64,000 nt of DNA, taken from positions 1,448 to 65,447 of the forward strand of contig CAZQLH010000001.1 in assembly GCA_964594155.1 (NCBI GenBank). The letters run 5' to 3'. Of the stretch, positions 4,091-42,797 are shown one piece after another (within the stretch, counting starts at the first letter, position 1; each line of letters opens with the position of its first letter). Both the position numbers and the translations under genes were made by a program. The notes under the pieces were generated by a model that saw nothing but the letters and a program-made list of their open reading frames with translations, was not told where the DNA came from and did not search any database. The DNA is from an uncultured Candidatus Saccharibacteria bacterium. GTDB lineage: Bacteria; Patescibacteriota; Minisyncoccia; Portnoybacterales; UBA2143.

Positions 4091-5185
4091 ATGAAAGATA
4101 GAGATAATAATAACCCTTTTTTTTCTTTGCAATGGCATATAACTTCTAAATGTGATCAACAATGTAAACACTGTTATATGTTTCAGTCTACTGAACTTGC
4201 CAAAAATGAAAAAGATTTGAGTTTTGAAGAGATTATTGAAGTGGTAAAAGATTTTTTAGATACCTGTGAAAAATTGAATGCTAACGCATTCATTGCTTTT
4301 ACTGGAGGTGATCCTCTTTTGAGAGAAGATTTTTTTTCGATTTTGGATTTTATACGCAAAGAAATACATAAACGTGGCATGAAATTTCCTATTATTGATA
4401 TTATGGGAAATCCATTTCATTTAGATTTAGAAACTGCTAAAAACCTAAAGGAAAAAGGAGTAAGACGGTATCAAATAAGTATAGATGGAGTGAGAGAAAA
4501 ACATGATGTACTTAGAAAGAAAGGCAGTTTTCAGGATTCTTTAGAAGCTATTGAAGTACTAAAAAAGACAGGAATAACAACAATTGTGATGTTCACGCTA
4601 AGTAAGTTTAATGCAGTAGATTTTTTTTCTTTAGTTGAACTTTTAGTGAGAGACTGCGAAATAGATATTTTTGCTTTTGCTCGTTTAGTCAGGCCAGAAT
4701 TGATGCCAATTAAAGATTATAGAAAAGTTAGCTTTTCTCCTTTTGAATATAGAGATTTTCTTATAAAAGTAGATTCTTTATACAACACCCTGCACAATGC
4801 CGGTTACAAGACTAAATTTTCCTTAAAAGATCATTTATGGAAGCTGTTTTTATATGAACGAGGTGAATTTACCTTTAATAGTGTAAATGATGGGATTGTT
4901 TATGGTGGATGTGGAATAGGAGTGGCTAATCTTTCTGTTTTATGTGATGGGAAAGTATACGCCTGCAGACGATTTCCAAGCTTGATAGGGAATGTGCCAA
5001 AAGATAAACTAATAGATATATTTTTACAGTCGGAGAAGCTAAATTGTTATCGTGAATTGTCTAATTTCATTAAATGTAAAAAATGTGAATTATTGCAATA
5101 TTGCCGTGGGTGTGGTGCGGTAGCGTATGGTGTTTTTGGTTCATTTTTTGCACCTGATCCTCAATGTTGGAAGAAACTTGATTAA
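4091..5185 (+). CDS. radical SAM/SPASM-domain peptide-modifying enzyme
   Basis: CDQQCKHC (CX3CX2C) motif near the N-terminus. C-terminal SPASM-like CKKCELLQYCRGC and GGCGIG..CDGKVYAC. Confidence 0.85.
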   Translation: MKDRDNNNPFFSLQWHITSKCDQQCKHCYMFQSTELAKNEKDLSFEEIIEVVKDFLDTCEKLNANAFIAFTGGDPLLREDFFSILDFIRKEIHKRGMKFPIIDIMGNPFHLDLETAKNLKEKGVRRYQISIDGVREKHDVLRKKGSFQDSLEAIEVLKKTGITTIVMFTLSKFNAVDFFSLVELLVRDCEIDIFAFARLVRPELMPIKDYRKVSFSPFEYRDFLIKVDSLYNTLHNAGYKTKFSLKDHLWKLFLYERGEFTFNSVNDGIVYGGCGIGVANLSVLCDGKVYACRRFPSLIGNVPKDKLIDIFLQSEKLNCYRELSNFIKCKKCELLQYCRGCGAVAYGVFGSFFAPDPQCWKKLD

Positions 5186-5207
5186 GTCTGTGTTTGTGTT
5201 TTATAAT

Positions 5208-5241
5208 AGAGAGTAGAGATATTTCTACTCTCTTTATTTTT
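5208..5241 (+). terminator. intrinsic terminator-like hairpin after rSAM gene
   Basis: agagagtagag-atatttc-tactctct followed by a T-run. Confidence 0.45.
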
Positions 5242-5847
5242 ATGTTTAAGTTTGCTAAAAAAATAAATAATAAGGTCAAACAATTGGCCTCAAGAATTCC
5301 TAAAAATGGAAAGGTTTTAGATTTAGGTTCAGGTATGGGTGCTAATAGTATTTTTTTATCAGATCAAGGTTTTAAAGTTACTTGCGTGGATAAAGATAAA
5401 GAGGTGATTAATGAAATAAAAAAAAAGTGTCAAGAAATTAATGTTGTATCAGGAAATATTTTAGATTTTGGTTTTCCTGAAAATGAGTATGATTTAATTT
5501 TAATATTGAATGTTTTGCATTTTTTTAGATTTACAGAGGTAAAAATAATAATAGACAAAACAATTAAATCTTTAAGAAAAGGAGGATTAGTTTATCTTGA
5601 GGTTTTCTCTACTAAAGATCCTTCGTATGTTAATTTTATAAAAGTTGCTCAGAAAATTAAAGGAGAAGGTTCGTTTTATAGTAAAAAAATGAAAAGTTTT
5701 GTACATTATTTTACAAAAGAGGAAATTATAAAGCTTTTTTCTGGGAACAAAATTTTAGAAATAGAAGAAAAGATAACAAGAGATAATCATCCGCCCATTG
5801 GCATACACAAACATAGTATTTTTTTTGTAGTGGTCGAAAAAGTTTGA
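5242..5847 (+). CDS. class I SAM-dependent methyltransferase
   Basis: Motif I VLDLGSGMGANSIFL with acidic motif II. Start chosen at ATG 5242; the ORF track's 5194 start lies inside the terminator. Confidence 0.65.
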   Translation: MFKFAKKINNKVKQLASRIPKNGKVLDLGSGMGANSIFLSDQGFKVTCVDKDKEVINEIKKKCQEINVVSGNILDFGFPENEYDLILILNVLHFFRFTEVKIIIDKTIKSLRKGGLVYLEVFSTKDPSYVNFIKVAQKIKGEGSFYSKKMKSFVHYFTKEEIIKLFSGNKILEIEEKITRDNHPPIGIHKHSIFFVVVEKV

Positions 5848-5987
5848 AGGAATGAAAAGTTATTAAAGTAAAATTATCAATATTTTATTGTCAATCATTA
5901 CTTTACAAATAATCATTTAAAACATCGCTTTAATCAAGCGATTTTTGTTTATTTTCGTTCCTGTGGATAATTTTTGTCGGGAAAAAC

Positions 5988-6017
5988 TTGACAAAGGTTT
6001 ATAAAATAGCATATAAT
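5988..6017 (+). promoter_or_regulatory. near-consensus sigma-70 promoter (TTGACA-18-TATAAT)
   Basis: ttgacaaaggtttataaaatagcatataat read directly from sequence. Confidence 0.5.
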
Positions 6018-6061
6018 CATAATATAAAGTTGTCTTTGAAATCATAATTAAGTTTAAAAAT

Positions 6062-6160
6062 ATGGACAACAAAATTATTTTAGCCATTATCATAATAGCA
6101 GTGCCAGTATCATTAACTTTGATAATCTGGTTAATTGGCAAGTATTACAGTAAAGAATAA
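6062..6160 (+). CDS. small hydrophobic peptide (32 aa, single TM) downstream of consensus promoter
   Basis: MDNKIILAIIIIAVPVSLTLIIWLIGKYYSKE. No clear SD; speculative. Confidence 0.3.
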   Translation: MDNKIILAIIIIAVPVSLTLIIWLIGKYYSKE

Positions 6161-6288
6161 AAAGTTATTGAAAGCTAACAAATCAAATCAAAAAGATTAA
6201 GATTTAATCTCCTTGATTCGGTTTGTTAAATAGAGAACCGAGTGGTTCTTTGAAAATATAATACTTGGAGAAAAAAGGGGGTGATGAT

Positions 6289-7320
6289 ATGTTACTGCAT
6301 CCTGGAACTGGGATGGAAAGCCTGAATGATTATAAAGTTCGGGTTGGCAATGGCGGAGTTATAATTACAACTCTTGGAGCAAAGGAATTTAACGGAGAAT
6401 ATAATAAAAGGAATTGGTTGTATGTGCTATTTATGCGACTGGTCAGTATCTGGGCAGCATTGACAAACTTCACTCAAGCTCTTTTTATTAAGGTGTTCAA
6501 AAAAAGGAAAAGTTCTCTTGGGAAAATTCTCTGGGAGATGGGAAGAGACCCAGAACACATTTCTAGTTTTTTTGGCGATCGATTTAGCAGGATTAACCAC
6601 CAGGCTGTAGTTGGAGCTGCAAGTTGGAAATCTCTTGATATTGTTTACAATTATCATGAGAAGATTAAGCCACAGCTTAATGGCGGTGTTGAAGGTTGGT
6701 TAACAAATCATTGGATCGGAAAACTTGAAAACCGTCAGGCTATTGCTAATCGATTGAAAATTATTATTAATCTTTTAACAAAGGCCTTTGCAGAATTTGC
6801 TAATGAGCCGGAAATTAGAATAATTTCACTGGCTTCTGGTTCAGCCCAGGCAGTTATAGAGGCAATGTTAAAGCGTCCTCATTTTAATATTAAAGCAGTT
6901 TTAATTGATATTGACAGAACTGCTTTAGCAGCTGCAAAAGCTTACGCTGAAAAAAATGGGTTAGGAGATAGATTTACCTTTATCAAGGGCACAACTAGAG
7001 TTTTGGAAAAAGTTTGTCAGGAATTTCAACCTCATATTATTGAGATGGTTGGATTTCTTGATTACAGGCCTGATGATAAGGCAATTAAATTAATCAATAA
7101 GATTAAAGACTGCCTGTCTGATAAAGGAATTTTTCTAACCTGCAACATTAACTACAATCGGGAGAAAATCTTTCTTGATTGGGTTATGTTATGGCCCATG
7201 ATTTATAGAAGCGAGGAACAGTTTACAAAATTGCTTCTCAATGGAGGTTTTTTTCCTCAAAATGTTGACATATTTTATGAACCGTTTCAGATTCATGGAA
7301 TTGGAGTATGTCAAAAATAA
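6289..7320 (+). CDS. SAM-dependent methyltransferase-like protein
   Basis: Rossmann-like IISLASGSAQAVIEA..LIDIDRTALAAAKAYAEKNGLGDRFTFIKG. ATG 6289 has a GGGGGTGATGAT RBS, which is preferred over the TTG at 6265. Confidence 0.5.
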   Translation: MLLHPGTGMESLNDYKVRVGNGGVIITTLGAKEFNGEYNKRNWLYVLFMRLVSIWAALTNFTQALFIKVFKKRKSSLGKILWEMGRDPEHISSFFGDRFSRINHQAVVGAASWKSLDIVYNYHEKIKPQLNGGVEGWLTNHWIGKLENRQAIANRLKIIINLLTKAFAEFANEPEIRIISLASGSAQAVIEAMLKRPHFNIKAVLIDIDRTALAAAKAYAEKNGLGDRFTFIKGTTRVLEKVCQEFQPHIIEMVGFLDYRPDDKAIKLINKIKDCLSDKGIFLTCNINYNREKIFLDWVMLWPMIYRSEEQFTKLLLNGGFFPQNVDIFYEPFQIHGIGVCQK

Positions 7321-7383
7321 AAACTTGATAGGCCCTTGAGAAAAATGGTAAAATAAAGCCAGATATTCTCAGGGGTCTTTCTT

Positions 7384-9510
7384 ATGAGTTTTTATGCTAT
7401 CACCGCATTAATAAATGCTATTACTAGTACTATTCTTGGGCTTTTTGTTTATTTTAAAAACAAAAAAGCAAAGATTAATCAAGCTTTTGCTTTGTTTTGT
7501 TTAAGCGCGGCTGTTTGGAGTTACGCTTATTATTTTTGGCAGATAGCTGATAATGCCAATAGCGCTCTTTTCTGGGTTCGGGGATTAATGATAGGAGCTA
7601 TTTTTGGTCCTATTTGTTATTTTTATTTTATTCTTAGACTGCTTAATAAGATTAAAGAAAAGAAAAAATCGCTTATTTTTGGATATTTAGTTTTTTTCTT
7701 TTTCTTTTTAGCTAATTTTACTTCTTTGTTTGTAAAAGGAGTAGGGCCAAAATTAGAGTTTGCTTTTTGGCCAGAGCCAGGCATTCTTTATCATCCGTTT
7801 CTTTTAGCTTGGCTTTTTTATGCGCTTTATGCGGTTTATTTATTATTCAATAAATATTTTTCTTCTTCAGGAATAACACATGCTAAGATTAAATATATTT
7901 TTATAGGAACAATTGTTGGATATTTAGGCGTGGCAACTAATTATTTATTATGGTATGATATTCCTATTCCGCCAATAGGTAATTGGACAGCTACATTTTA
8001 TTTAGCTGCTGTTGCCTACGCCATTCTCAAATACCGTTTGATGGATATCAGGGTGGCGATTAAGAGAAGCACTATTTTTTCCGGAGTTGTTATTATCATC
8101 ACAGCTGTCTATGTTATGGCGGCTTTTTTGTTAGGATTGATATTCTTTGGCGGCGTTTATACCCTTAGAACACAAGTTATTACTGGTTTAATCGTAGCTA
8201 TTCTAACTGCTGTTGGATTTAGGCCGCTGTATGAATGGTTAAAAAGAACAACTGACGCATTTTTATTTAAAGGCGAGTATAAGCCAGAGGAATTAATGTC
8301 TGATGTTTCTGATGTTTTATCCCGGACTTTAGATTTAGATAAGGTTATTAATACTTTAGAAGAACAAATTACTCAAGCCTTGAGATTGGAAAATATAGAA
8401 GTAGTTGTTTTTGGAAAAGAAGGCAGGGAATTGGATAAATTAGCTAATTGTTTTAAAAAACAAAGAGATGTATTGGTCTTAGAAGAATTAAAGAGAAAAC
8501 ATTCAGAAGGAATTTTATCTGGTGAAAATTTTCTCTATATTAAAGAAATGGAAAAACTAAAGGCAGCTTTAGTTGTTCCTTTAACGCTTAAAGAAAGATT
8601 ACTCGGACTTTTTCTTTTAAAAGCTAAGAAGTCCGGGGATATGTTTACTAATGAAGATATTAAAACATTGGAAACAATTGCCGCTCAAGCAGCTATTGCA
8701 ATTGAAAACGCCCGGCTTTATGAAGAGATGAGGGATTTTTCCAAGACGCTTCAAAAAGAAGTTAGATTTCAAACAAAAGAGCTTAGAGGCGCCAATATTA
8801 GATTACAGCAATTAGACAAAGCTAAATCAGAATTTATTTCATTGGCTTCTCATCAGCTAAGAACTCCTTTAAGCATTGTTAAGGGATATATTTCAATGAT
8901 ATTAGAAGGTTCTTGGGGTAAGATTAACAAAGAACAGAAAGGTCAATTAGAAAGGGTTTATTTAAGCAATGAGCGGTTAATTAGATTAGTTGACGACTTA
9001 TTAGCTGTTTCCAGGATTGAGTCAGGCCGTTTAGAGCTTGATTTTAAATCAGTTTCTTTAGAAAAGATGACTAAGAGCGTGATTGAAGAATTTAAGAAAG
9101 TTGCTGATGACAAAGGCCTTTATTTAAAATATATTGAGCCAAAAAAGCCAATTCCTTTAATTAAAATTGATGCTTTGAAAATTAGGCAAGTTGTTCAGAA
9201 TTTAGTTGATAATGCTCTTTTTTATACTAATAAAGGAGGAGCAGTTATTCGGCTTAAAACAGATAAAGACAAAATCATTTTTAGCATTAAAGATACTGGC
9301 ATTGGCGTTTCTGCCAAAGAGCAAGTAACTTTGTTTGAAAAGTTTTCCCGCGGACATGCAGGAGCTAAAATTCATACTGAAGGAACCGGCTTAGGATTGT
9401 ATTTAGCTGCTAAGTTAGTTTCAGCTCATCAAGGCAGAATTTGGGTTAAATCCAAAGGCAAAGACAAAGGCAGCGCCTTCTATTTTGAACTGCCGATAAA
9501 AAGAAAATAA
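7384..9510 (+). CDS. sensor histidine kinase (multi-TM sensor + GAF + HisKA + HATPase)
   Basis: HisKA H-box SHQLRTPL; N/G boxes (DNALFYT, DTGIGV, GTGLGL); GAF-like middle region; N-terminal ~7 TM. Confidence 0.9.
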   Translation: MSFYAITALINAITSTILGLFVYFKNKKAKINQAFALFCLSAAVWSYAYYFWQIADNANSALFWVRGLMIGAIFGPICYFYFILRLLNKIKEKKKSLIFGYLVFFFFFLANFTSLFVKGVGPKLEFAFWPEPGILYHPFLLAWLFYALYAVYLLFNKYFSSSGITHAKIKYIFIGTIVGYLGVATNYLLWYDIPIPPIGNWTATFYLAAVAYAILKYRLMDIRVAIKRSTIFSGVVIIITAVYVMAAFLLGLIFFGGVYTLRTQVITGLIVAILTAVGFRPLYEWLKRTTDAFLFKGEYKPEELMSDVSDVLSRTLDLDKVINTLEEQITQALRLENIEVVVFGKEGRELDKLANCFKKQRDVLVLEELKRKHSEGILSGENFLYIKEMEKLKAALVVPLTLKERLLGLFLLKAKKSGDMFTNEDIKTLETIAAQAAIAIENARLYEEMRDFSKTLQKEVRFQTKELRGANIRLQQLDKAKSEFISLASHQLRTPLSIVKGYISMILEGSWGKINKEQKGQLERVYLSNERLIRLVDDLLAVSRIESGRLELDFKSVSLEKMTKSVIEEFKKVADDKGLYLKYIEPKKPIPLIKIDALKIRQVVQNLVDNALFYTNKGGAVIRLKTDKDKIIFSIKDTGIGVSAKEQVTLFEKFSRGHAGAKIHTEGTGLGLYLAAKLVSAHQGRIWVKSKGKDKGSAFYFELPIKRK

Positions 9511-34618: not shown

Positions 34619-34646
34619 AAACCACTGGAAAAACCAGTGGTTTTTA
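34619..34646 (+). terminator. intrinsic terminator
   Basis: aaaccactgg-aaaaa-ccagtggttttt perfect 10-bp stem plus T-run. Confidence 0.8.
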
Positions 34647-34648
34647 AA

Positions 34649-34677
34649 TTGACCAAAGATGGTTATAAGGGTATGAT
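34649..34677 (+). promoter_or_regulatory. promoter TTGACC-17-TATGAT immediately after terminator
   Basis: Part of the recurring tttttaaattgaccaaa junction module. Confidence 0.45.
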
Positions 34678-34688
34678 TAGAAGAGAAT

Positions 34689-34922
34689 ATGATAAAAACT
34701 TGTTTTGAAAAATTTAATAAAAAATTAGACTCTAGAAATAATGTTATTTACGTTTTTATTGATGCGTCTAACTTATGGGAAGCGCAAAAGGCAAAGGGAA
34801 GATTTTTAGATTATGAAAAGACCTTAGAATTAAGGACTGGCGGGGATGGATATTCTGATATATTAAAAATAGATGAGATTTGGGGGAAGGAACTAAGATA
34901 TAGGAAGGAAAAAAATAAATAA
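34689..34922 (+). CDS. hypothetical protein (77 aa)
   Basis: ORF only. Confidence 0.4.
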   Translation: MIKTCFEKFNKKLDSRNNVIYVFIDASNLWEAQKAKGRFLDYEKTLELRTGGDGYSDILKIDEIWGKELRYRKEKNK

Positions 34923-35067
34923 AAACCACCCTCCGCAAGGAAGGTGGCTCTTGGATGTAATACCCTAACGGTTCTATGCCAGAACCGATAGACATTCTAA
35001 GTATATATAATTCGGAAACCATTGTCAAGATTTGTTTTTTATCCACAAGCAAAAAGGTATTAAATCA

Positions 35068-35412
35068 ATGAAAAAATATATATTGCCAATTAGACAAACA
35101 GACCGCGCTACTTATAATCTAATAAAAAGCGGGGAAAAAAGAGTTGAAACACGAGCGGCTAGTCCCAGATATAAAGATATTAAAGATGGAGATATTGTTG
35201 TTTTTAAGTGCGGAAATGATAGTTTTGAGCGTATTGTGAAAAAAGCGCGGAAATTTAATAATGTAGATAAAATACTTGATCATTATGATGTTAAAGATAT
35301 AAATCCAGGCGTTAATACTGTAGAAGAACTTAAATTAATGTATAATTCTTATCCTAATTATGCTGAAAAACTTAAAAAATACGGGATTATAGCATTTGAG
35401 CTTTTAGAGTAG
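35068..35412 (+). CDS. ASCH (PUA-like) domain protein
   Basis: ~115 aa; GEKRVETR..GDIVVF pattern typical of ASCH. Confidence 0.55.
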   Translation: MKKYILPIRQTDRATYNLIKSGEKRVETRAASPRYKDIKDGDIVVFKCGNDSFERIVKKARKFNNVDKILDHYDVKDINPGVNTVEELKLMYNSYPNYAEKLKKYGIIAFELLE

Positions 35413-35430: not shown

Positions 35431-36561
35431 ATGCGAGAAAGATTCGCAAAATCAATGAAAACCAAAAAAAACATCAAAACCCCGGAATTAAAAGCCCCAG
35501 CTGGCAATCTTGAAATGGTTAAAAAAGTCATTAAAGCTGGCGCAGACTCTATTTTTATTGGATTAGAGGACTGCAGCAGAAGAAGATATAATGAATTAAC
35601 CTTATTAGAAGCAATTTACGCGACTAAATGGGTTAAGCAAAAAAACAAGAAAATATATATTGCCTTAAACGCAGACATTTCAGATGATGAAATTCAAGGA
35701 GTTCTTGATTTAAGGGTTAAAGAATTAGTTAATAAAGGCGTAGACGGCTTTATTTTAAGGACGCCTAAATTAATGGAAAGAATAAGCAAAGAATACAGAA
35801 GAAAAGGCTATCCAAATTTAGAAGTTGTTGCAAGCGTTGGATGTAATATTCAAACATCAGAACAAATTAAAAAATATGCTGATTATGGAATTTCAACATT
35901 GGTTTTAAGCACAGAACTGTCAAAACGGCCTTATGATGACAAGAAGAAAAATCAATTGATAGAATTAAGGAAAACCGCTGATAAATACAATATTAAACTA
36001 GAGATTCTCAGCGCTTTAACAGCTTGTATTAAAGGTGTTGGAGGCGGCGACGCTAAAGGATGTGATTTATATAAATATGCGGAAAATCTTACTCGTAAAA
36101 TTACTCATGAACATACAGACGGATTTAAGCGTTCATATTTTGATTTTTTTCCGCATAAAGGAGGCGGTTGCTTAAGGTGGTGTAATATTATATTTGATCC
36201 AGAAATTCAGCAGCATATTCTGAATAATGGCGGAAATCAAGATGATATTGATGTATTAGTAAAACACAGAGAAAACAAAACTGGAAATATCAGCATAATA
36301 CATGATTATGAAATTCTTGATTTAATAAAAATTGGAATGGATGTTATAAAAATACAGGGCAGGGAAAATACTCCTCAATGGGCCGCAAAAATAACAAAGA
36401 CAATGAGAAGTATTATTGATAATCCATTGGAATCAGAAGTTGAAAAGCACAAAAAAAGCCTTAAAACACTCAAAAATGATTGGGATAAAAGAAGATTTCA
36501 AGGAGATACAAAACTATTGGCAGAATTTTACAAAAGAACAGGAAAACCCTCCAAGACCTAA
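35431..36561 (+). CDS. peptidase U32 family protein
   Basis: N-terminal ELKAPAGNLE (the U32 E-L-L-A-P-A-G signature). Confidence 0.75.
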   Translation: MRERFAKSMKTKKNIKTPELKAPAGNLEMVKKVIKAGADSIFIGLEDCSRRRYNELTLLEAIYATKWVKQKNKKIYIALNADISDDEIQGVLDLRVKELVNKGVDGFILRTPKLMERISKEYRRKGYPNLEVVASVGCNIQTSEQIKKYADYGISTLVLSTELSKRPYDDKKKNQLIELRKTADKYNIKLEILSALTACIKGVGGGDAKGCDLYKYAENLTRKITHEHTDGFKRSYFDFFPHKGGGCLRWCNIIFDPEIQQHILNNGGNQDDIDVLVKHRENKTGNISIIHDYEILDLIKIGMDVIKIQGRENTPQWAAKITKTMRSIIDNPLESEVEKHKKSLKTLKNDWDKRRFQGDTKLLAEFYKRTGKPSKT

Positions 36562-36598
36562 CATTGAAATTTAAATAATCATTTGTTATAATTACCAT

Positions 36599-36793
36599 AT
36601 GACCAAAGAAGAGTTTTTAAAAATTTACGCCAATATCCCAATTAATCTTCGCAAAGAGATTCTTCTTGTCTTAAAGGATAAAGAACCAATTACTTGGAAT
36701 GTTGCTTATCTTGAAATAAATCAAGATACTCAATTAGGGAAAGAAATTTTAAAAAAATTAGATTTAATATGGGGAAAAAGAAAAAGAAAATAA
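36599..36793 (+). CDS. hypothetical protein (64 aa)
   Basis: ORF only. Confidence 0.4.
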   Translation: MTKEEFLKIYANIPINLRKEILLVLKDKEPITWNVAYLEINQDTQLGKEILKKLDLIWGKRKRK

Positions 36794-37026
36794 AAAAAGA
36801 AATTAAGGATTTAGTTATAGCGCGGCTGGGGGTTTTACCACCAGATAAAAAGATTTCTATCGGCTCATCAGGTGAGTTTACTAAAGATGAGCTAATTGAG
36901 CATGTAGAGAAAGAGGATGTTATTGGAGAGAAGATAACCGAGATTGAATTGGCCTATCTCAAAGCAATAAAAGAAGGTATTTTTTATGAACAAGATTTTT
37001 CTAATTACCAGACCGAAGCACGATGA
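36769..37026 (+). CDS. hypothetical protein (85 aa)
   Basis: ORF only; overlaps its neighbours. Confidence 0.4.
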   Translation: MGKKKKKIKKEIKDLVIARLGVLPPDKKISIGSSGEFTKDELIEHVEKEDVIGEKITEIELAYLKAIKEGIFYEQDFSNYQTEAR

Positions 37027-37630
37027 GACCACTTATTATCTTTTTCATTGGAGTAGAAAGGTGATAGAATTAGCAAAAAGAAAAGGAATTCAGGTTTTAG
37101 ATTTACAAAAAGAAAGGGCTAATAGAAAAGAGCTGACCAGTATTATAAAAAAGAAACAACCCTTTTTTATTTTTCTGAATGGCCATGGCGGGGCTAATTT
37201 TGTTGCCGGAGACGAGGATGAAGTTTTGATAAAAGCCGGCGATAATGAGGGGTTATTGAAATCTAAATTAGTTTATGCTTTATCTTGCCAATCAGCAAAA
37301 GGATTAGGACCAAAAAGCGTTAAAAAAGGAGCTATTAGTTATATTGGTTATGATGATGATTTTGTCTTCGTTTTTGACCAGGCAAAAATTTATAGACCAT
37401 TAGAAGATCTCACAGCAAAATTATTTTTTGATCCCTCAAATCAAATAGTCATTAGTTTATTAAAAGGACATGAAACCGGGGATGCCTATAAAAGATCTCA
37501 AGGGGTGTTTATGAAAAATATCCAGAGCTTATTGACTAGCGAATCATCGGTTGATTCAGTTTATCTTAGATATTTATTGTGGGATATGCAGCATCAAGTT
37601 TGTTTAGGGGATAAAGAGGCTGTTTTCTAA
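36986..37630 (+). CDS. hypothetical protein with caspase-like His..Cys arrangement
   Basis: FLNGHGG followed ~35 aa later by YALSCQSAKG, the His-then-Cys order of clan CD peptidases. Inference only. Confidence 0.45.
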   Translation: MNKIFLITRPKHDETTYYLFHWSRKVIELAKRKGIQVLDLQKERANRKELTSIIKKKQPFFIFLNGHGGANFVAGDEDEVLIKAGDNEGLLKSKLVYALSCQSAKGLGPKSVKKGAISYIGYDDDFVFVFDQAKIYRPLEDLTAKLFFDPSNQIVISLLKGHETGDAYKRSQGVFMKNIQSLLTSESSVDSVYLRYLLWDMQHQVCLGDKEAVF

Positions 37631-37654
37631 TAAAAAAAGTATAGATAAAGCTTC

Positions 37655-37680
37655 AAAATCGTCTTTTTAAGACGGTTTTT
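37655..37680 (+). terminator. intrinsic terminator
   Basis: aaaatcgtc-tttttaa-gacggttttt. Confidence 0.6.
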
Positions 37681-37684
37681 AAAA

Positions 37685-37713
37685 TTGACCAAACACAAGC
37701 AAAAAGGTATTAT
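37685..37713 (+). promoter_or_regulatory. promoter TTGACC-17-TATTAT after terminator
   Basis: Same junction module as at 34641. Contains the 19-mer cacaagcaaaaaggtatta, also found at 35044..35062. Confidence 0.45.
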
Positions 37714-37747
37714 TAAAGTAGAAACTTATGAAATAAGGAGGATTTAA

Positions 37748-38431
37748 ATGAATAAAAAGTTAAAAATTAAAGATTTGCCGCCAATTGATCGCCCAAGAGA
37801 GAAAATGAAAGCTAAAGGCCCGCAAAACCTCAAAGACGCAGAGCTTTTAGCTATTCTTTTAGGAACTGGCTATCAAGGCAAGAATGTTCTTGAATTAGCT
37901 AAATCTATTTTATCTAAATATAGGGGCAAAAAACTGATTTCTTTGAATTACGATGAATTAGTGAAAATAAAGGGGATTAGCCAGGCTAAAGCAGCTATAA
38001 TCCTATCAGCCGTAGAATTAACTAAAAGAGCTTTAAAACATAAAGATGATGATACTTTGCCAATAATCAAGTCAGTTAAAGATGTTGTTGCTCAATCTGT
38101 CTATATGAGGGATAAAAAGAGAGAACATTTCCAAGTCATATACCTTAACGCTAGAAATGAGATGATTGATAAAAAACCAATGTTTGTCGGCACTCTTAAT
38201 GTTAATTTAGTTCATCCAAGAGAAATCTTTGCCAGAGCTGTAGAAAACAATTCTGCATCCATTATTTTAGTTCATAATCATTTATCTAGCGACCCAGAGC
38301 CATCACAGGATGATATTGAAGTTACCAAGCGCATTGTTGAAGCTGGCAAGATAATGGGGATTGAGGTCTTAGATCATGTAATTATAGCTAAAAACAAGTT
38401 TTTCAGCTTTTCGGAGAAAAAATTACTCTAA
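37748..38431 (+). CDS. radC: RadC-like JAB/MPN-domain protein (UPF0758)
   Basis: JAMM-like HNHLSSDPEPSQDD; N-terminal HhH region. Confidence 0.8.
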   Translation: MNKKLKIKDLPPIDRPREKMKAKGPQNLKDAELLAILLGTGYQGKNVLELAKSILSKYRGKKLISLNYDELVKIKGISQAKAAIILSAVELTKRALKHKDDDTLPIIKSVKDVVAQSVYMRDKKREHFQVIYLNARNEMIDKKPMFVGTLNVNLVHPREIFARAVENNSASIILVHNHLSSDPEPSQDDIEVTKRIVEAGKIMGIEVLDHVIIAKNKFFSFSEKKLL

Positions 38432-38568
38432 TTTTTTCGTAGATCCGCCTCTGGAGGAAAAGAAAAGAAATTGATTTAATTTGTAATGTATTTGCGTGAA
38501 TTTGTGTCACTTTTACTAAAAATTCACGGTATATTGACATTTTATCGTGAATTTACTACAATAGTAGT

Positions 38569-39471
38569 ATGACTATATCAAAAGACATTAAAGAAAAAAT
38601 TAATACATTAAAACAAGAATATGATTCTTTAAAGAAAGACAAAGAATCGCTTTTGGATATTGTGTTTGAATCAGAGTTGCCAGAATCTGTCTATAACTCA
38701 AACGCTATTGAAAATTCAACTCTTACTATTTCTGAAACAGAAAAGATTCTTTTAGATATGGAAGTTTCCCGCAATGTATCAGTGCGTGAAGTTTTTGAAG
38801 CAAAAAATTTGGCGCGAGTATTTGAATATATAAGAGGCAAGATAAGCGCGAAAAATGTTGATAAGGAATTTATCTTGCTATTGCATAAGATGTTAATTTC
38901 AAATATAGACGAGGGAATTGCCGGCAGATTTCGGAAACAACATGAATATGTCAGAGTTGGGACGCATATTGCGCCTGCTTCAAAGCATATCAATAATATG
39001 ATTAATGCCATGCTTTTAGAATATTCAAGCCGCCACACAGAATACTTTCTTGAAAAAATTGCCAAATTCCATCTTGAATTTGAACACATTCATCCATTTT
39101 GCGATGGTAATGGAAGAATTGGGCGCGTGTTGATCAACTATCAATTAATACAGCTTGGATTTCCGCCAATTATTATTCGTGATAAGGAAAAAGCCGTTTA
39201 TTACAAATCCTTTGGAGAGTATAGAGATAGTAATAAGAAAAAAACAGCAATTATGAATAAAGTTTTGTTTTTAGCGCTTTTAGAATCTTTTCATAAAAGA
39301 ATCGCTTATTTAAAAGGAGAGAAAATTGTACGACTTTCAGAATACGCTGAAAAGAAAAATGAATCTGCGTCTATTTTTCTCAATAAAGCCAAGCGGCAAA
39401 CCATTCCCGCTTTCCGTGAAAAAGGAATATGGAAAATCGGAAATACTAAAAAAGACAAGAACAGTTCTTAA
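38569..39471 (+). CDS. Fic-family protein (class II, N-terminal autoinhibitory motif)
   Basis: Fic motif HPFCDGNGRIGR. N-terminal SNAIEN matches the [ST]xxxE[GN] inhibitory motif. Confidence 0.85.
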   Translation: MTISKDIKEKINTLKQEYDSLKKDKESLLDIVFESELPESVYNSNAIENSTLTISETEKILLDMEVSRNVSVREVFEAKNLARVFEYIRGKISAKNVDKEFILLLHKMLISNIDEGIAGRFRKQHEYVRVGTHIAPASKHINNMINAMLLEYSSRHTEYFLEKIAKFHLEFEHIHPFCDGNGRIGRVLINYQLIQLGFPPIIIRDKEKAVYYKSFGEYRDSNKKKTAIMNKVLFLALLESFHKRIAYLKGEKIVRLSEYAEKKNESASIFLNKAKRQTIPAFREKGIWKIGNTKKDKNSS

Positions 39472-39485
39472 AAGGACGTCTTAAG

Positions 39486-39553
39486 AGGCCGTGCGTTGAG
39501 AGCTACATCCCTTGCGCTAGTAGGCGAAAGGGTGTACTCGTCAAGGCACGGCC
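39486..39553 (+). other. structured element: 8-bp GC stem (ggccgtgc/gcacggcc) enclosing ~50 nt with inner hairpin
   Basis: Read directly. Lies between the fic stop and the next start; no U-run. Confidence 0.35.
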
Positions 39554-39617
39554 TATGACTCTTAGTTTAAAACCAACCAAACTTCAAACACAGATTAAAA
39601 GGGGATATAATAAGAGC

Positions 39618-39926
39618 ATGATAAAAAACCAAAACAAAATTCACGGATCTATAAATAGCTCTGGCAAAAAAAGCGGTAAATTGCGATACAATAGACTGAG
39701 AATATTAAAAAAACATAAAGGTAAGTTTAAAAAGATTGACAAGATAACTGTTAAGTATCGTGGGGATTCTTTTATAGCACAAATAAACAACAGATTGTTT
39801 AGTGTTTATGGAGAGATTGACGATGATAAAATAGAAGAATGGTTTGGAAATAAATATATAAAAATTAATATTGATATAACTCATTTGTATAATTTAAATA
39901 ATATAGAATTAAAGGAAAAGAAATAA
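39618..39926 (+). CDS. hypothetical protein (102 aa)
   Basis: AAAAGGGGA RBS then ATG 39618. The stop sits at the point where homology to the second YbjQ copy begins. Confidence 0.45.
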   Translation: MIKNQNKIHGSINSSGKKSGKLRYNRLRILKKHKGKFKKIDKITVKYRGDSFIAQINNRLFSVYGEIDDDKIEEWFGNKYIKINIDITHLYNLNNIELKEKK

Positions 39927-39934
39927 AACAAACT

Positions 39935-40201
39935 TTGGGTTTGGTTAGAGGAAATACTATTAGAGCCAAGCATATTGGCAAGGATATTTTAGCTGGCTTA
40001 AGAAGCATTGTTGGCGGAGAGATTAAGGAATACACAGAAGCGTTGTCTAAAGCAAGAGAAGTGGCAATTAAAAGAATGATTGAGCAGGCAAATGAATTAG
40101 GAGCAGATGCGATTATTGGCGTTAGATTTACTACTTCTCAAGTTATGGCTGGCGCAGCTGAATTATTAGTTTATGGAACAGCCGTAAAACTAACTGAATA
40201 A
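39935..40201 (+). CDS. YbjQ/UPF0145-family protein, 5'-truncated duplicate copy (TTG start or pseudogene)
   Basis: 100% nucleotide identity with 42103..42369. Lacks the N-terminal 17 codons and the ATG of the full copy. Confidence 0.5.
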   Translation: MGLVRGNTIRAKHIGKDILAGLRSIVGGEIKEYTEALSKAREVAIKRMIEQANELGADAIIGVRFTTSQVMAGAAELLVYGTAVKLTE

Positions 40202-40292
40202 GGCGGTTTTTATTAAAATAAATAAAGGATTTGGAGGGGTGAGGAGTTCTTAGAAAGAAAAAATCGCCAAGTCGGCGGTTTTTTGATATAAT

Positions 40293-40610
40293 ATGAATAT
40301 GGATAAGGAACAACTATTTTTGAATAAATTACAGAGATGGATGGGCAGGCCTATTTATTATAATAAATATTTTTATTTGGATAAATGGAGTTTTGTTCAT
40401 TTTGTTTTTGGGTTAATCTTGGGATTTATTTTTTCCCGTTATTTTCCTGTTAACTACGCTTGGTTGATTGTCTTGAGTATATTAATAGTTTATGAGCTTT
40501 TTGAAACGGCGATTTCTGGATATCTTTACAGAAAGGAATTGATACTTAATAAAGTTTGGGACATATTGATTGGCATGGCTGGTTTTTTGATTATTTGGCT
40601 CTGGTTTTAA
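40293..40610 (+). CDS. small 3-TM membrane protein (cassette copy 1)
   Basis: ~85% aa identity to the product of 42428..42739. A TATAAT sits immediately upstream of the ATG. Confidence 0.55.
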   Translation: MNMDKEQLFLNKLQRWMGRPIYYNKYFYLDKWSFVHFVFGLILGFIFSRYFPVNYAWLIVLSILIVYELFETAISGYLYRKELILNKVWDILIGMAGFLIIWLWF

Positions 40611-40632
40611 AATATAATCTAAAAATCTAAAT

Positions 40633-41268
40633 ATGAGGAATTTTTCAAGGATTGGTAAAATCTTAATAATTTCTGTTTTGGTTGTTGCTGGCGTATTTGT
40701 TTTTGTTCGTTTTAAAGATAACAATGAATATATTGTTAAAGTAATTAAGGTTATTGACGGAGATACAATTGTTATTGAAGGAGGGGAAATAGTAAGATAT
40801 ATTGGAATTAATGCGCCGGAAACAAGCCAGGATAAGGATGATTGCTTTGCCCAGGAAGCATTTAACGCAAATAAGGAATTAATTGAAGGAAAAGAGGTTA
40901 AATTAAAAAAAGATGTTTCAGAAAAGGATAAATATGGAAGATTGTTAAGATATGTCTGGATTGACGATATTTTTGTTAATGAATATTTAGTTAGGCAGGG
41001 ATATGCTTTATCAGCTGAATATCCTCCTGATACAAAGTATGCAGAGCAGTTTGATAATTTAGAAAAACAAGCTAAAGAAGAAAATTTAGGATTATGGTCT
41101 GCGTGCCAAATTAACGGAATTATCTGTTCTATAAATGCGTATGATTGCTCTGATTTTGAAACACAAAAGGAAGCCCAGGGGATTTATGAGCATTGCGGAG
41201 GCGCAAATAATGATATTCATAAGTTAGATAGTGATAATGATAAAATAGCTTGCGAGAGTTTGTTTTAA
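40633..41268 (+). CDS. secreted thermonuclease (SNase/micrococcal nuclease-like) with C-terminal Excalibur Ca-binding domain
   Basis: N-terminal signal anchor; SNase core (GRLLRYVW..); C-terminal DSDNDKIACE Excalibur motif. Confidence 0.75.
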   Translation: MRNFSRIGKILIISVLVVAGVFVFVRFKDNNEYIVKVIKVIDGDTIVIEGGEIVRYIGINAPETSQDKDDCFAQEAFNANKELIEGKEVKLKKDVSEKDKYGRLLRYVWIDDIFVNEYLVRQGYALSAEYPPDTKYAEQFDNLEKQAKEENLGLWSACQINGIICSINAYDCSDFETQKEAQGIYEHCGGANNDIHKLDSDNDKIACESLF

Positions 41269-41295
41269 AAAATTTAATTAAAAAAGGATAAATTT

Positions 41296-41838
41296 ATGTC
41301 AAAAGAAAACAAACAAGAAGAAAAAGAAATATTAAATCTTTTAGAGGATTATTCCAAAGCATTATCGCTTTTAGAAAAGTATGATAAGGGCAAGTTAAAA
41401 ATTGAAAAAGGAATAAAAGATAAGTTTGTTTTAGAATACAAGAATTCTCAGAATGTTATTTCTGAATTAAAAAAGAATTTAATTGCTAAAAAAGAAGCTA
41501 AAGATGTTTTTGGCAATGAAGCTGGAAGAAGATTTGAAGGCGTAGTTAAAAATATTTACCAAACATTTGACCAGAAAGAGCTATATGAATCAGTTGGAAA
41601 TAAGGCGGCTAATCTTTTGTATTTAACTATAAAGGATCATTATTTTACTGATGGCAATAAACGCATTGGTTCTTTCTTGTTTGTCTATTTTTTAGATAAA
41701 AATGATTATTTGTATCGTGAAAATGGAGAAAAAAGAATAAGCAATAATACTTTAGCTGTTTTAGCCTTGCTTATTGCTGAAAGCAATCCAGAAGAAAAAG
41801 ATCAGATGATAGCGCTTGTTACTCAATTATTGAAATAA
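41296..41838 (+). CDS. Doc-like Fic-family protein (death-on-curing type)
   Basis: HYFTDGNKRIGS matches the Doc/Fic HxFx[DN]GNKR motif. 180 aa with an N-terminal extension. Confidence 0.7.
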   Translation: MSKENKQEEKEILNLLEDYSKALSLLEKYDKGKLKIEKGIKDKFVLEYKNSQNVISELKKNLIAKKEAKDVFGNEAGRRFEGVVKNIYQTFDQKELYESVGNKAANLLYLTIKDHYFTDGNKRIGSFLFVYFLDKNDYLYRENGEKRISNNTLAVLALLIAESNPEEKDQMIALVTQLLK

Positions 41839-41857
41839 AGTATGATATAATAAAAAA

Positions 41858-42055
41858 ATGAAGCCATTGAATATTTTAGGATTAATATTTTTTGCTGTTG
41901 GGGCTTTTGCCCTAATGGGATTTGGTTTTTATGAATTTTTTAGAGATTCAACTATTCCTGCTGTAGTCAGGTGGGGAATTATCGCTATAATATCAGGAAC
42001 AATTATTATTTTAATTTCTCTTATTAAAGAGAGATTAAAGGAAAAAGATTTATGA
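41858..42055 (+). CDS. small 2-TM membrane protein
   Basis: 65 aa, hydrophobic. Confidence 0.4.
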   Translation: MKPLNILGLIFFAVGAFALMGFGFYEFFRDSTIPAVVRWGIIAIISGTIIILISLIKERLKEKDL

Positions 42056-42369
42056 TTCTTACAACTTCATATAGAATCAAAGGAAAAAAAATAGAACAAA
42101 CTTTGGGTTTGGTTAGAGGAAATACTATTAGAGCCAAGCATATTGGCAAGGATATTTTAGCTGGCTTAAGAAGCATTGTTGGCGGAGAGATTAAGGAATA
42201 CACAGAAGCGTTGTCTAAAGCAAGAGAAGTGGCAATTAAAAGAATGATTGAGCAGGCAAATGAATTAGGAGCAGATGCGATTATTGGCGTTAGATTTACT
42301 ACTTCTCAAGTTATGGCTGGCGCAGCTGAATTATTAGTTTATGGAACAGCCGTAAAACTAACTGAATAA
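42052..42369 (+). CDS. YbjQ/UPF0145-family protein (full-length copy)
   Basis: Alignable to the YbjQ family (..GNTIRAKHIGKDILAGLRSIVGGEI..AREVA..ELGADAIIGVRF..GTAVK). Confidence 0.7.
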   Translation: MILTTSYRIKGKKIEQTLGLVRGNTIRAKHIGKDILAGLRSIVGGEIKEYTEALSKAREVAIKRMIEQANELGADAIIGVRFTTSQVMAGAAELLVYGTAVKLTE

Positions 42370-42427
42370 GGATTTTAAAGAAAACAAAAAAATCGCCAAA
42401 GAGGTGGTTTTTTGGTATAATAAAGAT

Positions 42428-42739
42428 ATGCATAAAGAACTAATGTTTTTCAATAAATTACAGAGATGGATGGGCAGGCCTATTTATAATAAGAAATATT
42501 TTTATTTAGATAAATGGAGTTTTGTTCATTTTGTTTTTGGGTTAATCTTTGGATTTATTTTTTCCCGCTATTTTCCTATTGATTATGCCTGGTTGATTGT
42601 ACTGGGTATATTAATAGTTTATGAATTTTTTGAAGTGGCAATTTCTAAATATCTTTATGGAAAAGAATTAATACTTAATAAAATTTGGGATATATTAATT
42701 GGCATGGCTGGTTTCTTGATTATTTGGTTTTGGTTTTAA
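42428..42739 (+). CDS. small 3-TM membrane protein (cassette copy 2)
   Basis: Paralogue of 40293..40610. A TATAAT sits immediately upstream. Confidence 0.55.
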   Translation: MHKELMFFNKLQRWMGRPIYNKKYFYLDKWSFVHFVFGLIFGFIFSRYFPIDYAWLIVLGILIVYEFFEVAISKYLYGKELILNKIWDILIGMAGFLIIWFWF

Positions 42740-42797
42740 AATATAATCTAAATATACATCATTAAATTATTAGATAAACTTTTTTCAAATGTAATTT

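Follow-up and report, generated by a model that had tools for sequence, protein, structure and literature searches.

A 64,000-nucleotide stretch of DNA (hereafter the window) from an uncultured Candidatus Saccharibacteria bacterium (contig CAZQLH010000001.1) carries, between positions 36599 and 42055, genes for a class II Fic protein (Fic2), a Doc-type Fic protein (Doc), RadC and a nuclease with an Excalibur domain (SNase), along with several tiny open reading frames (ORFs). A preliminary description of this DNA proposed that such genes could hide an uncharacterized multi-gene system of the defense or addiction type. We consider it more probable, though with real room for doubt, that the span contains at least four independent units in a rearrangement-prone, co-directional stretch of Patescibacteria chromosome, and is not one system. 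The first unit would be a self-contained cassette, s64-s85-u214, kept across Patescibacteria, whose largest product is a candidate minimal cysteine protease with a caspase/CHAT fold. A canonical RadC would be the second and Fic2, horizontally exchanged among Patescibacteria, the third. The fourth would be an operon-like run, TMa-SNase-Doc-TM65-YbjQ, in which SNase, TM65 and YbjQ form the lineage backbone and Doc is hotspot cargo. All of the genes named in the preliminary description exist and lie on the + strand (Table 1), with Fic2, Doc, RadC and SNase inside the span; the ASCH and U32 genes that it also listed are real but are located upstream of position 36599.

Linkage was tested in 84 Doc-centered and 80 Fic2-centered loci from other genomes, the Fic2 set consisting of metagenome relatives with 62–93% amino acid (aa) identity. 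L-numbers (L005, L099, L105, etc.) denote homologous loci fetched from other genomes or contigs for comparison with the window. Doc relatives are accompanied by SNase in one locus, by RadC in three and by Fic in two, and by other window genes in none. Among the Fic2 loci, 83 of 137 immediate neighbors are singletons, and a Doc domain is found in 2 of 80 and RadC in 4 of 80. The recurrent neighbors of Fic2 are HsdM of type I restriction–modification (R-M) systems, directly downstream in 9 of 67 contexts, and RadC, directly downstream in three. RhuM-family genes directly adjoin Fic2 relatives in five contexts, one of them with a Doc domain. No HsdM gene is present in the window. The recurrence of one gene set in unrelated genomes that would mark a defense system is not seen in either collection. 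The rarity with which SNase, RadC and Fic co-occur speaks against the proposal that the named genes are a single multi-gene system.

The conserved multi-gene unit of the span is s64-s85-u214, which is kept across Patescibacteria. With identical sizes and overlaps, the trio is set between unrelated flanks in L187 (Parcubacteria), L189 and L190, and the s64 homologs at the same position in these loci are 54–58% identical. NCBI locus tags place s85 homologs next to u214 homologs in four more genomes. A strong promoter-like site (36564–36592; 11 of 12 matches plus TG) lies ahead of s64. The s85 family comprises 749 matches, all of ∼80–90 aa, all annotated as hypothetical and without a Pfam domain, and no Pfam, PADLOC or NCBIfam match was obtained for s64. 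An uncharacterized multi-gene unit does exist here, yet it is made of this cassette and not of the named genes; the preliminary description mentioned tiny ORFs, which are indeed present, without singling out the three-gene cassette with its 214-aa gene.

The predicted fold of u214 is a confident match to caspases, gingipains and CHAT proteases, with a His-Cys dyad placed after consecutive core strands as in the caspase-hemoglobinase fold. Residues N65-G66-H67-G68 and S100-C101-x-S103 are invariant. Apart from a few calls that are truncated, nearly all of the 337 close homologs are ∼213–216 aa long; at E ≤ 1e-3 there are 2371 cluster representatives. The protein matches no family in Pfam, NCBIfam or PADLOC, and comparison with curated families (CHAT and Peptidase_C13, C14 and C25) gave no significant match, the best being Peptidase_C25 (E 0.056, 2 of 50 members) and CHAT (E 0.095, 1 of 50). 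Profiles of s64, s85 and u214 found nothing significant among Protein Data Bank sequences, u214 had no matches in IMG/VR viral contigs, and a literature search on caspase-like proteases in Patescibacteria returned nothing specific.

Clan CD proteases elsewhere have roles in immunity and regulated cell death. Unlike the described members of this clan (CHAT proteases such as SAVED-CHAT and the TPR-CHAT of Craspase, gingipains, metacaspases and separase), u214 is only 214 aa long and lacks any sensor, TPR, SAVED or pro-domain; two small overlapping genes precede it in every case, and it is apparently confined to Patescibacteria where sources name the organism. A tentative proposal, for which the odds fall somewhat short of even, is that the trio is an undescribed Patescibacteria-wide system centered on a stand-alone caspase/CHAT-fold protease that is among the smallest, with s64 and s85 as its translationally coupled regulators or substrates.

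The slot between SNase and the TM65-YbjQ pair is a hotspot for toxin or toxin–antitoxin (TA) cargo, because in the nearest relatives it holds a Panacea-type TA pair and other genes instead of Doc. The nearest named relative is the metagenome-assembled genome GCA_016784225.1 of a Candidatus Portnoybacteria bacterium; in it and in strain variants, SNase is 88–89% identical in aa sequence and is followed by DUF5661, not by Doc. Between L099 and the window, nucleotide identity is 90% for SNase, 88% for TM65-YbjQ, 85% for Band7-u108 and 72% for EngB-sigma. The interval between SNase and TM65 in L099–L104 contains DUF5661, SocA/Panacea with a weakly RelE-like partner of 132 aa, an 82-aa gene and a YdjM-like gene, and L099 carries HicA with a DUF7387 partner upstream of SNase. 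An intergenic segment of 58 nt, kept in L099–L104 (5926–5983 in L099), corresponds to the last 19 codons of Doc (window 41780–41837) with 91% identity, which places a deletion or replacement breakpoint inside Doc. L105, 95–98% identical to L099 over their common segments, has in order an intact Doc (91% aa identity), the Panacea pair, a different Fic allele (50% aa identity to Fic2) and TM65-YbjQ. Since this intact Doc occupies the position of the L099 stub, Doc is ancestral and was deleted in L099; synonymous divergence (dS) to L105 agrees, being 0.36 for Doc versus 0.28–0.50 for the backbone. In L108, Doc immediately follows the holin-like gene and the 58-aa gene found at 33.5–34.2 kb in the window, and u108 and Fic2 come after it. 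The whole 34–44 kb stretch is therefore plastic.

SNase and Doc are separable in both directions: SNase is found without Doc in L099, and Doc without SNase in L105, L108, L011 and L095. The TM65-YbjQ pair is kept in L099–L105, where Doc is absent or three genes away. Because TM65 and ybjQ share an overlap of 4 nt and stay together where Doc is missing, TM65 belongs to the backbone and is not a Doc partner. Variable cargo between conserved flanks, as seen among the window, L099, L105 and L108, bears out the earlier impression of an addiction- or defense-type variable region in the sense of accessory-type territory with toxin-type cargo.

Fic2 is a putative AMP-transferase of class II, in a Fic class scheme that is said to come from Engel et al. 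in 2012. It scores 76.6 bits against Pfam Fic (cutoff 24). The sequence SNAIEN at residues 44–49 (38698–38715) fits the pattern (S/T)xxxE(G/N), aligns with the inhibitory-helix region of FICD and is conserved in position in six relatives, and the active-site motif HPFCDGNGRIGR at residues 175–186 (39091–39126) fits HxFx(D/E)GNGRxxR. The best solved relatives, FICD/HYPE (E 2e-21) and C. difficile Fic (E 9e-17), are both class II, so the earlier assignment to this class with an N-terminal SNAIEN holds. As in these enzymes and E. faecalis Fic, the inhibitory motif lies in the same chain ∼130 residues before the active-site motif; unlike them, Fic2 has a C-terminal tail of ∼80 residues and a gene that was apparently exchanged horizontally. 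Displacement of Glu48 in its own SNAIEN helix would be required before Fic2 AMPylates a target. The ratio of nonsynonymous to synonymous substitution (dN/dS) is 0.07–0.10.

Between the window and L106, L112 and L108, dS is 0.70–0.78 for Fic2, whereas for the flanking RadC, u108 and Doc it ranges from 1.85 to saturation. This low synonymous divergence relative to the neighbors suggests recent horizontal exchange of Fic2 among Patescibacteria. An apparent presence/absence polymorphism in strains L005 and L007, where Fic2 seemed disrupted, is actually a scaffold N run. In L097, positions 4527–9233 carry a RhuM-Doc gene divided into a RhuM part of 113 aa and a Doc part of 177 aa, next to a DpnI-like restriction enzyme and an ortholog of Fic2 (81% aa identity); this looks like a more typical defense-island context for the Fic2 and RhuM-Doc families.

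Several observations weigh against a division of the span into independent units or limit what can be read from it. A Fic2-family gene lies <3 kb from a RhuM-Doc-family gene in six arrangements (the window, L105, L108, L097, L043 and L171), and a full-length RadC adjoins Fic2 in five lineages (the window, L106, L112, L113 and L170). Because of these associations, Fic2 may have some functional coupling with Doc or RadC. Strong promoter-like sites stand separately ahead of s64, RadC (37685–37713), Fic2 (38534–38562), TMa and TMb, and the promoter-motif scan found none ahead of SNase or Doc; as a class, such sites show no excess, with 48 versus 45 in shuffled sequence. The five structure models of Doc have predicted local distance difference test (pLDDT) values of 50.7–81.6, with 81.6 reached by one. 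All enzymatic activities named here are inferred from motifs, and the proposed enzymatic targets, inhibition in cis and any role in defense or addiction are likewise to be read as conditional. Finally, a PADLOC profile scan found no match to an experimentally validated defense system among the ten ORFs that it covered (36599–41838, not the whole window).

That scan had been suggested as a check, and it did return candidates: its strong matches are to candidate (PDC) families, PDC-S04 for Fic2 (2e-37) and PDC-S23 for Doc, while SoFic (3e-25 for Fic2) and the SNase-domain model C3a212 match at the domain level. The candidate-family matches are one likeness to defense islands and TA hotspots, and fast cargo turnover between conserved flanks (HicA and Panacea pairs, Fic, Doc) is another. 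Unlike defense islands, the slot shows no integrase or other mobility gene and the span no compositional anomaly, and the ten scanned ORFs include no validated system.

The proximity of the two Fic-family genes raises the possibility that Fic2 and the Doc-type protein form a functional pair, through mutual regulation or backup or as a defense module with a shared target, and that the other genes are passengers. The statement that they fall within 3 kb is roughly right: they cover 3.27 kb in all and are 1.8 kb apart. In the six contexts the intervening genes differ, and the distance shrinks to a 63-nt gap in L043 and to 290 nt between divergent genes in L171; the RhuM-family genes directly beside Fic2 in five contexts point the same way. 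However, co-occurrence in the larger collections amounts to just 2 of 80 Fic2 loci and 2 of 84 Doc loci. Solo Doc genes in L011 and L095 have no Fic gene within 5–10 kb, order, orientation and spacing are never alike, and the Fic allele of L105 is 50% identical although its Doc is 91% identical. Type I R-M loci have been reported to contain embedded RhuM and Fic/DOC genes (PMC9881135). Because both families are thus independently known as inserts in such loci, their co-localization can be explained without coupling, and we regard a functional pair as unlikely.

A second alternative is that the entire span is ordinary, vertically inherited housekeeping of the lineage, which is the situation that the preliminary description had itself named as the opposite of its proposal (conserved core genes in the same neighborhood throughout). 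RadC is a canonical equivalog, the trio is phylum-wide, and the nearest relative shows synteny for SNase, TM65-YbjQ, Band7-u108 and EngB. The dS of Doc matches that of the backbone, and the layout is uniform across sampled strains. Against this stand the reduction of Doc to a 58-nt stub in L099, the varying slot contents of the window, L099, L105 and L108, the occurrence of TA modules (HicA, Panacea) in the same slot in relatives, and a Fic2 dS far below that of its neighbors. The relatives' loci thus largely refute the idea for Doc and Fic2, and for the span as a whole it is improbable.

Table 1. Positions of the genes and repeat copies discussed in the text
Feature	Position	Strand	Description
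ASCH	35032–35412	+	Pfam ASCH 24.2 bits; outside the span
U32-family	35431–36561	+	Pfam Peptidase_U32 62.2 bits; outside the span
s64	36599–36793	+	64 aa; first cassette gene
s85	36769–37026	+	85 aa; second cassette gene; 25-nt overlap with s64, 41-nt overlap with u214
u214	36986–37630	+	214 aa; stand-alone clan CD cysteine protease candidate; His67 at 37184–37186, Cys101 at 37286–37288
RadC	37748–38431	+	Canonical, full-length; UPF0758_N and JAB/MPN domain with HNHx7SxxD
Fic2	38569–39471	+	300 aa; class II Fic, putative AMP-transferase
b123	39555–39926	+	Lysine-rich orphan ORF; 123 or 102 aa (102 aa as called by other annotators)
Repeat copy a	39901–40629	+	5′-truncated ybjQ (39935–40201) and TMa membrane gene (40293–40610)
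SNase-Excalibur	40633–41268	+	Membrane-anchored or secreted staphylococcal-type nuclease with C-terminal Excalibur; backbone gene
Solo Doc	41296–41838	+	180 aa; predicted stand-alone C-terminal Doc-type Fic module, RhuM-Doc family
TM65	41858–42055	+	65-aa two-helix membrane protein; backbone gene
Repeat copy b	42069–42757	+	Full-length ybjQ (42052–42369) and TMb membrane gene (42404–42739)

As judged from its sequence, Doc is the C-terminal kinase module of the RhuM-Doc family (PDC-S23) standing alone, and it is under purifying selection. This assignment is made because Doc matches PDC-S23 at its C-terminal part only (1e-60, profile positions 133–307 of 312), because over its whole length it aligns with the C-terminal ∼175 residues of 310–340-aa proteins with PF13310 and PF02661 (54–60% identity), and because the RhuM half is absent from the window. 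Pfam finds no RhuM domain (PF13310) in the protein, and tblastn with five RhuM N-domain queries found none elsewhere in the window (best E 0.2). The Doc motif HYFTDGNKR at residues 115–123 (41638–41664) sits on a Doc fold. Scores are 32.8 bits for Pfam Fic (cutoff 24) and 38.2 bits for the NCBIfam model TIGR01550 DOC_P1, a marginal miss against its cutoff of 38.65, and the sequence matches the Doc-family structure 9vzc (E 5.5e-5). A Foldseek search with the AlphaFold2 model of Doc (pLDDT 81.6) gave P1 Doc (3dd7/3k33) as top matches with a probability of 0.99 and a template modeling score of 0.60 on the target. The model has an extra N-terminal helix (residues 3–30) followed by the six-helix Doc core, as expected from the earlier account of a Doc-type protein with an N-terminal extension and no Phd-like partner; no Phd-like ORF was found.

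Doc is present in single copy, and a Shine-Dalgarno-like AAGGA precedes its ATG by 9 nt. Across 65 sequences, residues H115, F117, G120, N121, K122 and R123 do not vary. At 41638–41646 Doc reads HYF, where ∼90% or more of the 65 members have HPF; the Tyr is shared by L105. Against L105, L011 and L108 (91%, 70% and 66% aa identity), dN/dS is 0.11–0.15, similar to the values for SNase (0.14) and YbjQ (0.11).

Homologs of Doc fall into two size classes, one of ∼175–185 aa with the Fic domain only and one of 300–340 aa with PF13310 (RhuM) plus Fic. Doc resembles the RhuM-Fic/Doc fusions in having the helical region ahead of the core and the motif H.F.DGNKR, and differs from them in lacking the N-terminal RhuM (helix-turn-helix-like) domain. 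BifA of Streptococcus equi subsp. zooepidemicus has the full RhuM-Doc architecture, and its RhuM domain was not required for the Fic-dependent activities tested (PMC6529018). A literature search on PDC-S23 itself found nothing specific.

A short form of this kind might be a dead remnant of a 5′-truncated RhuM-Doc gene. Most relatives are 310–360 aa long, 73 of 83 Doc relatives among GTDB species representatives are long RhuM fusions (several of the 10 short ones being cut by contig ends), the window lacks the RhuM half, the L097 gene is split, and L099 contains a true remnant. However, dN/dS stays at 0.11–0.15 at aa divergences of up to 34%, the catalytic motif is complete and does not vary, the Shine-Dalgarno-like sequence is in place, and several lineages begin at the same domain boundary. 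With these data, a dead gene is very improbable.

Having found Doc to be a selected, solitary module, we are left with the question of how its toxicity is contained. It resembles the P1 Phd/Doc system in its Doc-type motif, in which Lys replaces the second Gly, and in its fold match to 3dd7/3k33. In contrast to that system, no Phd, YefM or conserved small partner gene lies by the window Doc, there are ∼60 extra N-terminal residues, the DOC_P1 score is below its cutoff, and the RhuM-Doc family is nearly absent from viral contigs, where the search gave just two weak full-length matches and otherwise ordinary phage Doc cores.

The preliminary description had noted that the gene upstream of Doc is the nuclease, which is correct (27-nt gap), and that Doc lacks an obvious antitoxin. 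The latter also stands, given that the neighbors differ in five lineages and that no adjacent, co-transcribed antitoxin, Phd/YefM or other, was found in any of them. Upstream and downstream of Doc are, respectively, SNase and TM65 in the window, an acidic 51-aa ORF and the Panacea antitoxin in L105, a 50-aa membrane ORF and a 5′-3′ exonuclease in L011, a divergent gene and u108 in L108, and a divergent gene and a cupin in L095. Two candidates were rejected. The small ORFs of L105 and L011 are unrelated to each other, and the corresponding neighbors in L108 and L095 are divergent. The Panacea antitoxin is not the Doc partner, because the pair of Panacea and the 132-aa protein persists in L099, from which Doc has been deleted.

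In the model case of P1 Doc, EF-Tu is phosphorylated at Thr382, and the C-terminal helix of Phd complements the Doc fold. By analogy, the window Doc would phosphorylate a translation factor and stall translation. Without an antitoxin acting in trans it would be restrained in cis, most plausibly by the conserved N-terminal helix (residues 3–30), which would take over the fold-complementing role of the Phd helix. An antitoxin-less Doc may therefore, on this analogy, be self-restrained by a built-in, Phd-like helix, a weaker proposal than the one offered for the trio.

A direct repeat of ∼0.7 kb, whose two copies each contain ybjQ and a membrane gene, flanks SNase-Doc-TM65. Copy a lacks the first 6 codons and the ATG of ybjQ, and only positions 18–103 of the Pfam YbjQ_1 profile are covered. 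The ybjQ parts of the two copies are 99% identical in the window assembly and 95–96% identical in other assemblies of the species, whereas the TM parts are 88% identical; this suggests that copy b in the window carries copy-a sequence through gene conversion or consensus mixing. An exact-sequence look-up of full-length YbjQ found nothing. With dN/dS values of 0.08 and 0.21, both copies look to be under selection. The order in L105 is Doc...Fic-TM65-YbjQ, and that in the window is Fic2-b123-truncated YbjQ-TMa-SNase-Doc-TM65-YbjQ-TMb. The simplest history that we infer from these orders is that a larger block was duplicated in tandem and then underwent differential loss.

It is highly unlikely that SNase-Doc-TM65 is instead a mobile toxin/immunity cassette whose insertion into a ybjQ-TM locus created the repeat: the copies do bracket precisely these three genes, which are separated by gaps of just 27 and 19 nt and have no strong internal promoter, but SNase is followed by DUF5661 in L099–L104, Doc lacks an upstream SNase in L105, L108, L011 and L095 and has SNase near it in 1 of 84 loci, TM65 belongs to ybjQ in every relative, copies that are 88–96% identical are not target-site duplicates, and duplication with differential loss, as judged from L105 versus the window, would fit better.

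A terminator-plus-promoter element lies at 40260–40292. It is one instance of an intergenic element that occurs repeatedly, AAAATCGCC-N-GGYGGTTTTTTG and then GNTATAAT, and that consists of a terminator-like hairpin and a −10 box; it is also found at 42389–42421 in the window, upstream of Doc in L011 and at three sites in L099, and it sits at several rearrangement junctions. The orphan ORF b123 has no family matches, and no homolog outside the species was found in ∼260 fetched loci. Because its stop lies inside the left ybjQ repeat junction, b123 may be a by-product of rearrangement.

SNase has Pfam scores of 83.9 bits for the nuclease domain (cutoff 21) and 23.5 bits for Excalibur (cutoff 22) and is NucI-like by NCBIfam. 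Its translation has an N-terminal hydrophobic anchor at residues 9–26, as expected for an exported or anchored protein. It would act as an extracellular nuclease, plausibly in nucleotide scavenging, while RadC, ASCH and U32 would have housekeeping roles. RadC is identified by Pfam (141.5 and 88.5 bits for RadC JAB and UPF0758_N) and by the NCBIfam equivalog NF000642 (230 bits, cutoff 180), and its translation contains the JAMM motif HNHLSSDPEPSQDD, which fits HxHx7SxxD. Where RadC adjoins Fic2, the order is RadC then Fic2 in the window and Fic2 then RadC elsewhere, and the RadC proteins are just 37–80% identical. Two 57-nt stretches, 34641–34697 and 37677–37733, are 70% identical and carry TTGACC-17-TAT(G/T)AT promoter-like sites; the former precedes a 77-aa ORF at 34689 and the latter precedes RadC. 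Characterized bacterial members of the U32 family are known as hydroxylation factors for RNA or ubiquinone, not as peptidases, and for this reason the adjacent ASCH and U32 genes are probably RNA-modification housekeeping genes, not toxins. No ASCH or U32 homologs were found in the fetched relatives' loci except one weak U32 match (L027).

The GC content of the span is 29–33%, like that of the rest of the window (∼32%), with no compositional break. Between 34.2 and 45.4 kb nearly all genes are on the + strand and are shorter than in the flanks. Exact or near-exact copies of the locus (99.6–100% nucleotide identity) occur in at least 10 independent groundwater or sediment metagenome contigs, which excludes an assembly artifact, and every sampled strain of the species shows the same layout. 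Named homologs of the local proteins are mostly annotated as Patescibacteria or Parcubacteria. The misaligned comparison of EngB with L011 was left out of the dN/dS analysis.

The lesson of this locus is that Fic, Doc, RadC and a nuclease lying side by side do not define a system, and that conserved linkage needs to be tested gene by gene. The trio adds a compact, widely kept caspase-fold protease candidate to a phylum in which conserved hypothetical proteins mostly lack an explanation. Solitary genes for Doc-type kinases can endure under purifying selection, without a Phd-type antitoxin or a RhuM domain, and the solo Doc offers a minimal construct with which to study RhuM-Doc (PDC-S23), a candidate defense family. 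The ultra-small genomes of Patescibacteria are thought to be streamlined, and a hotspot that swaps TA and Fic cargo among close relatives nevertheless persists in them.

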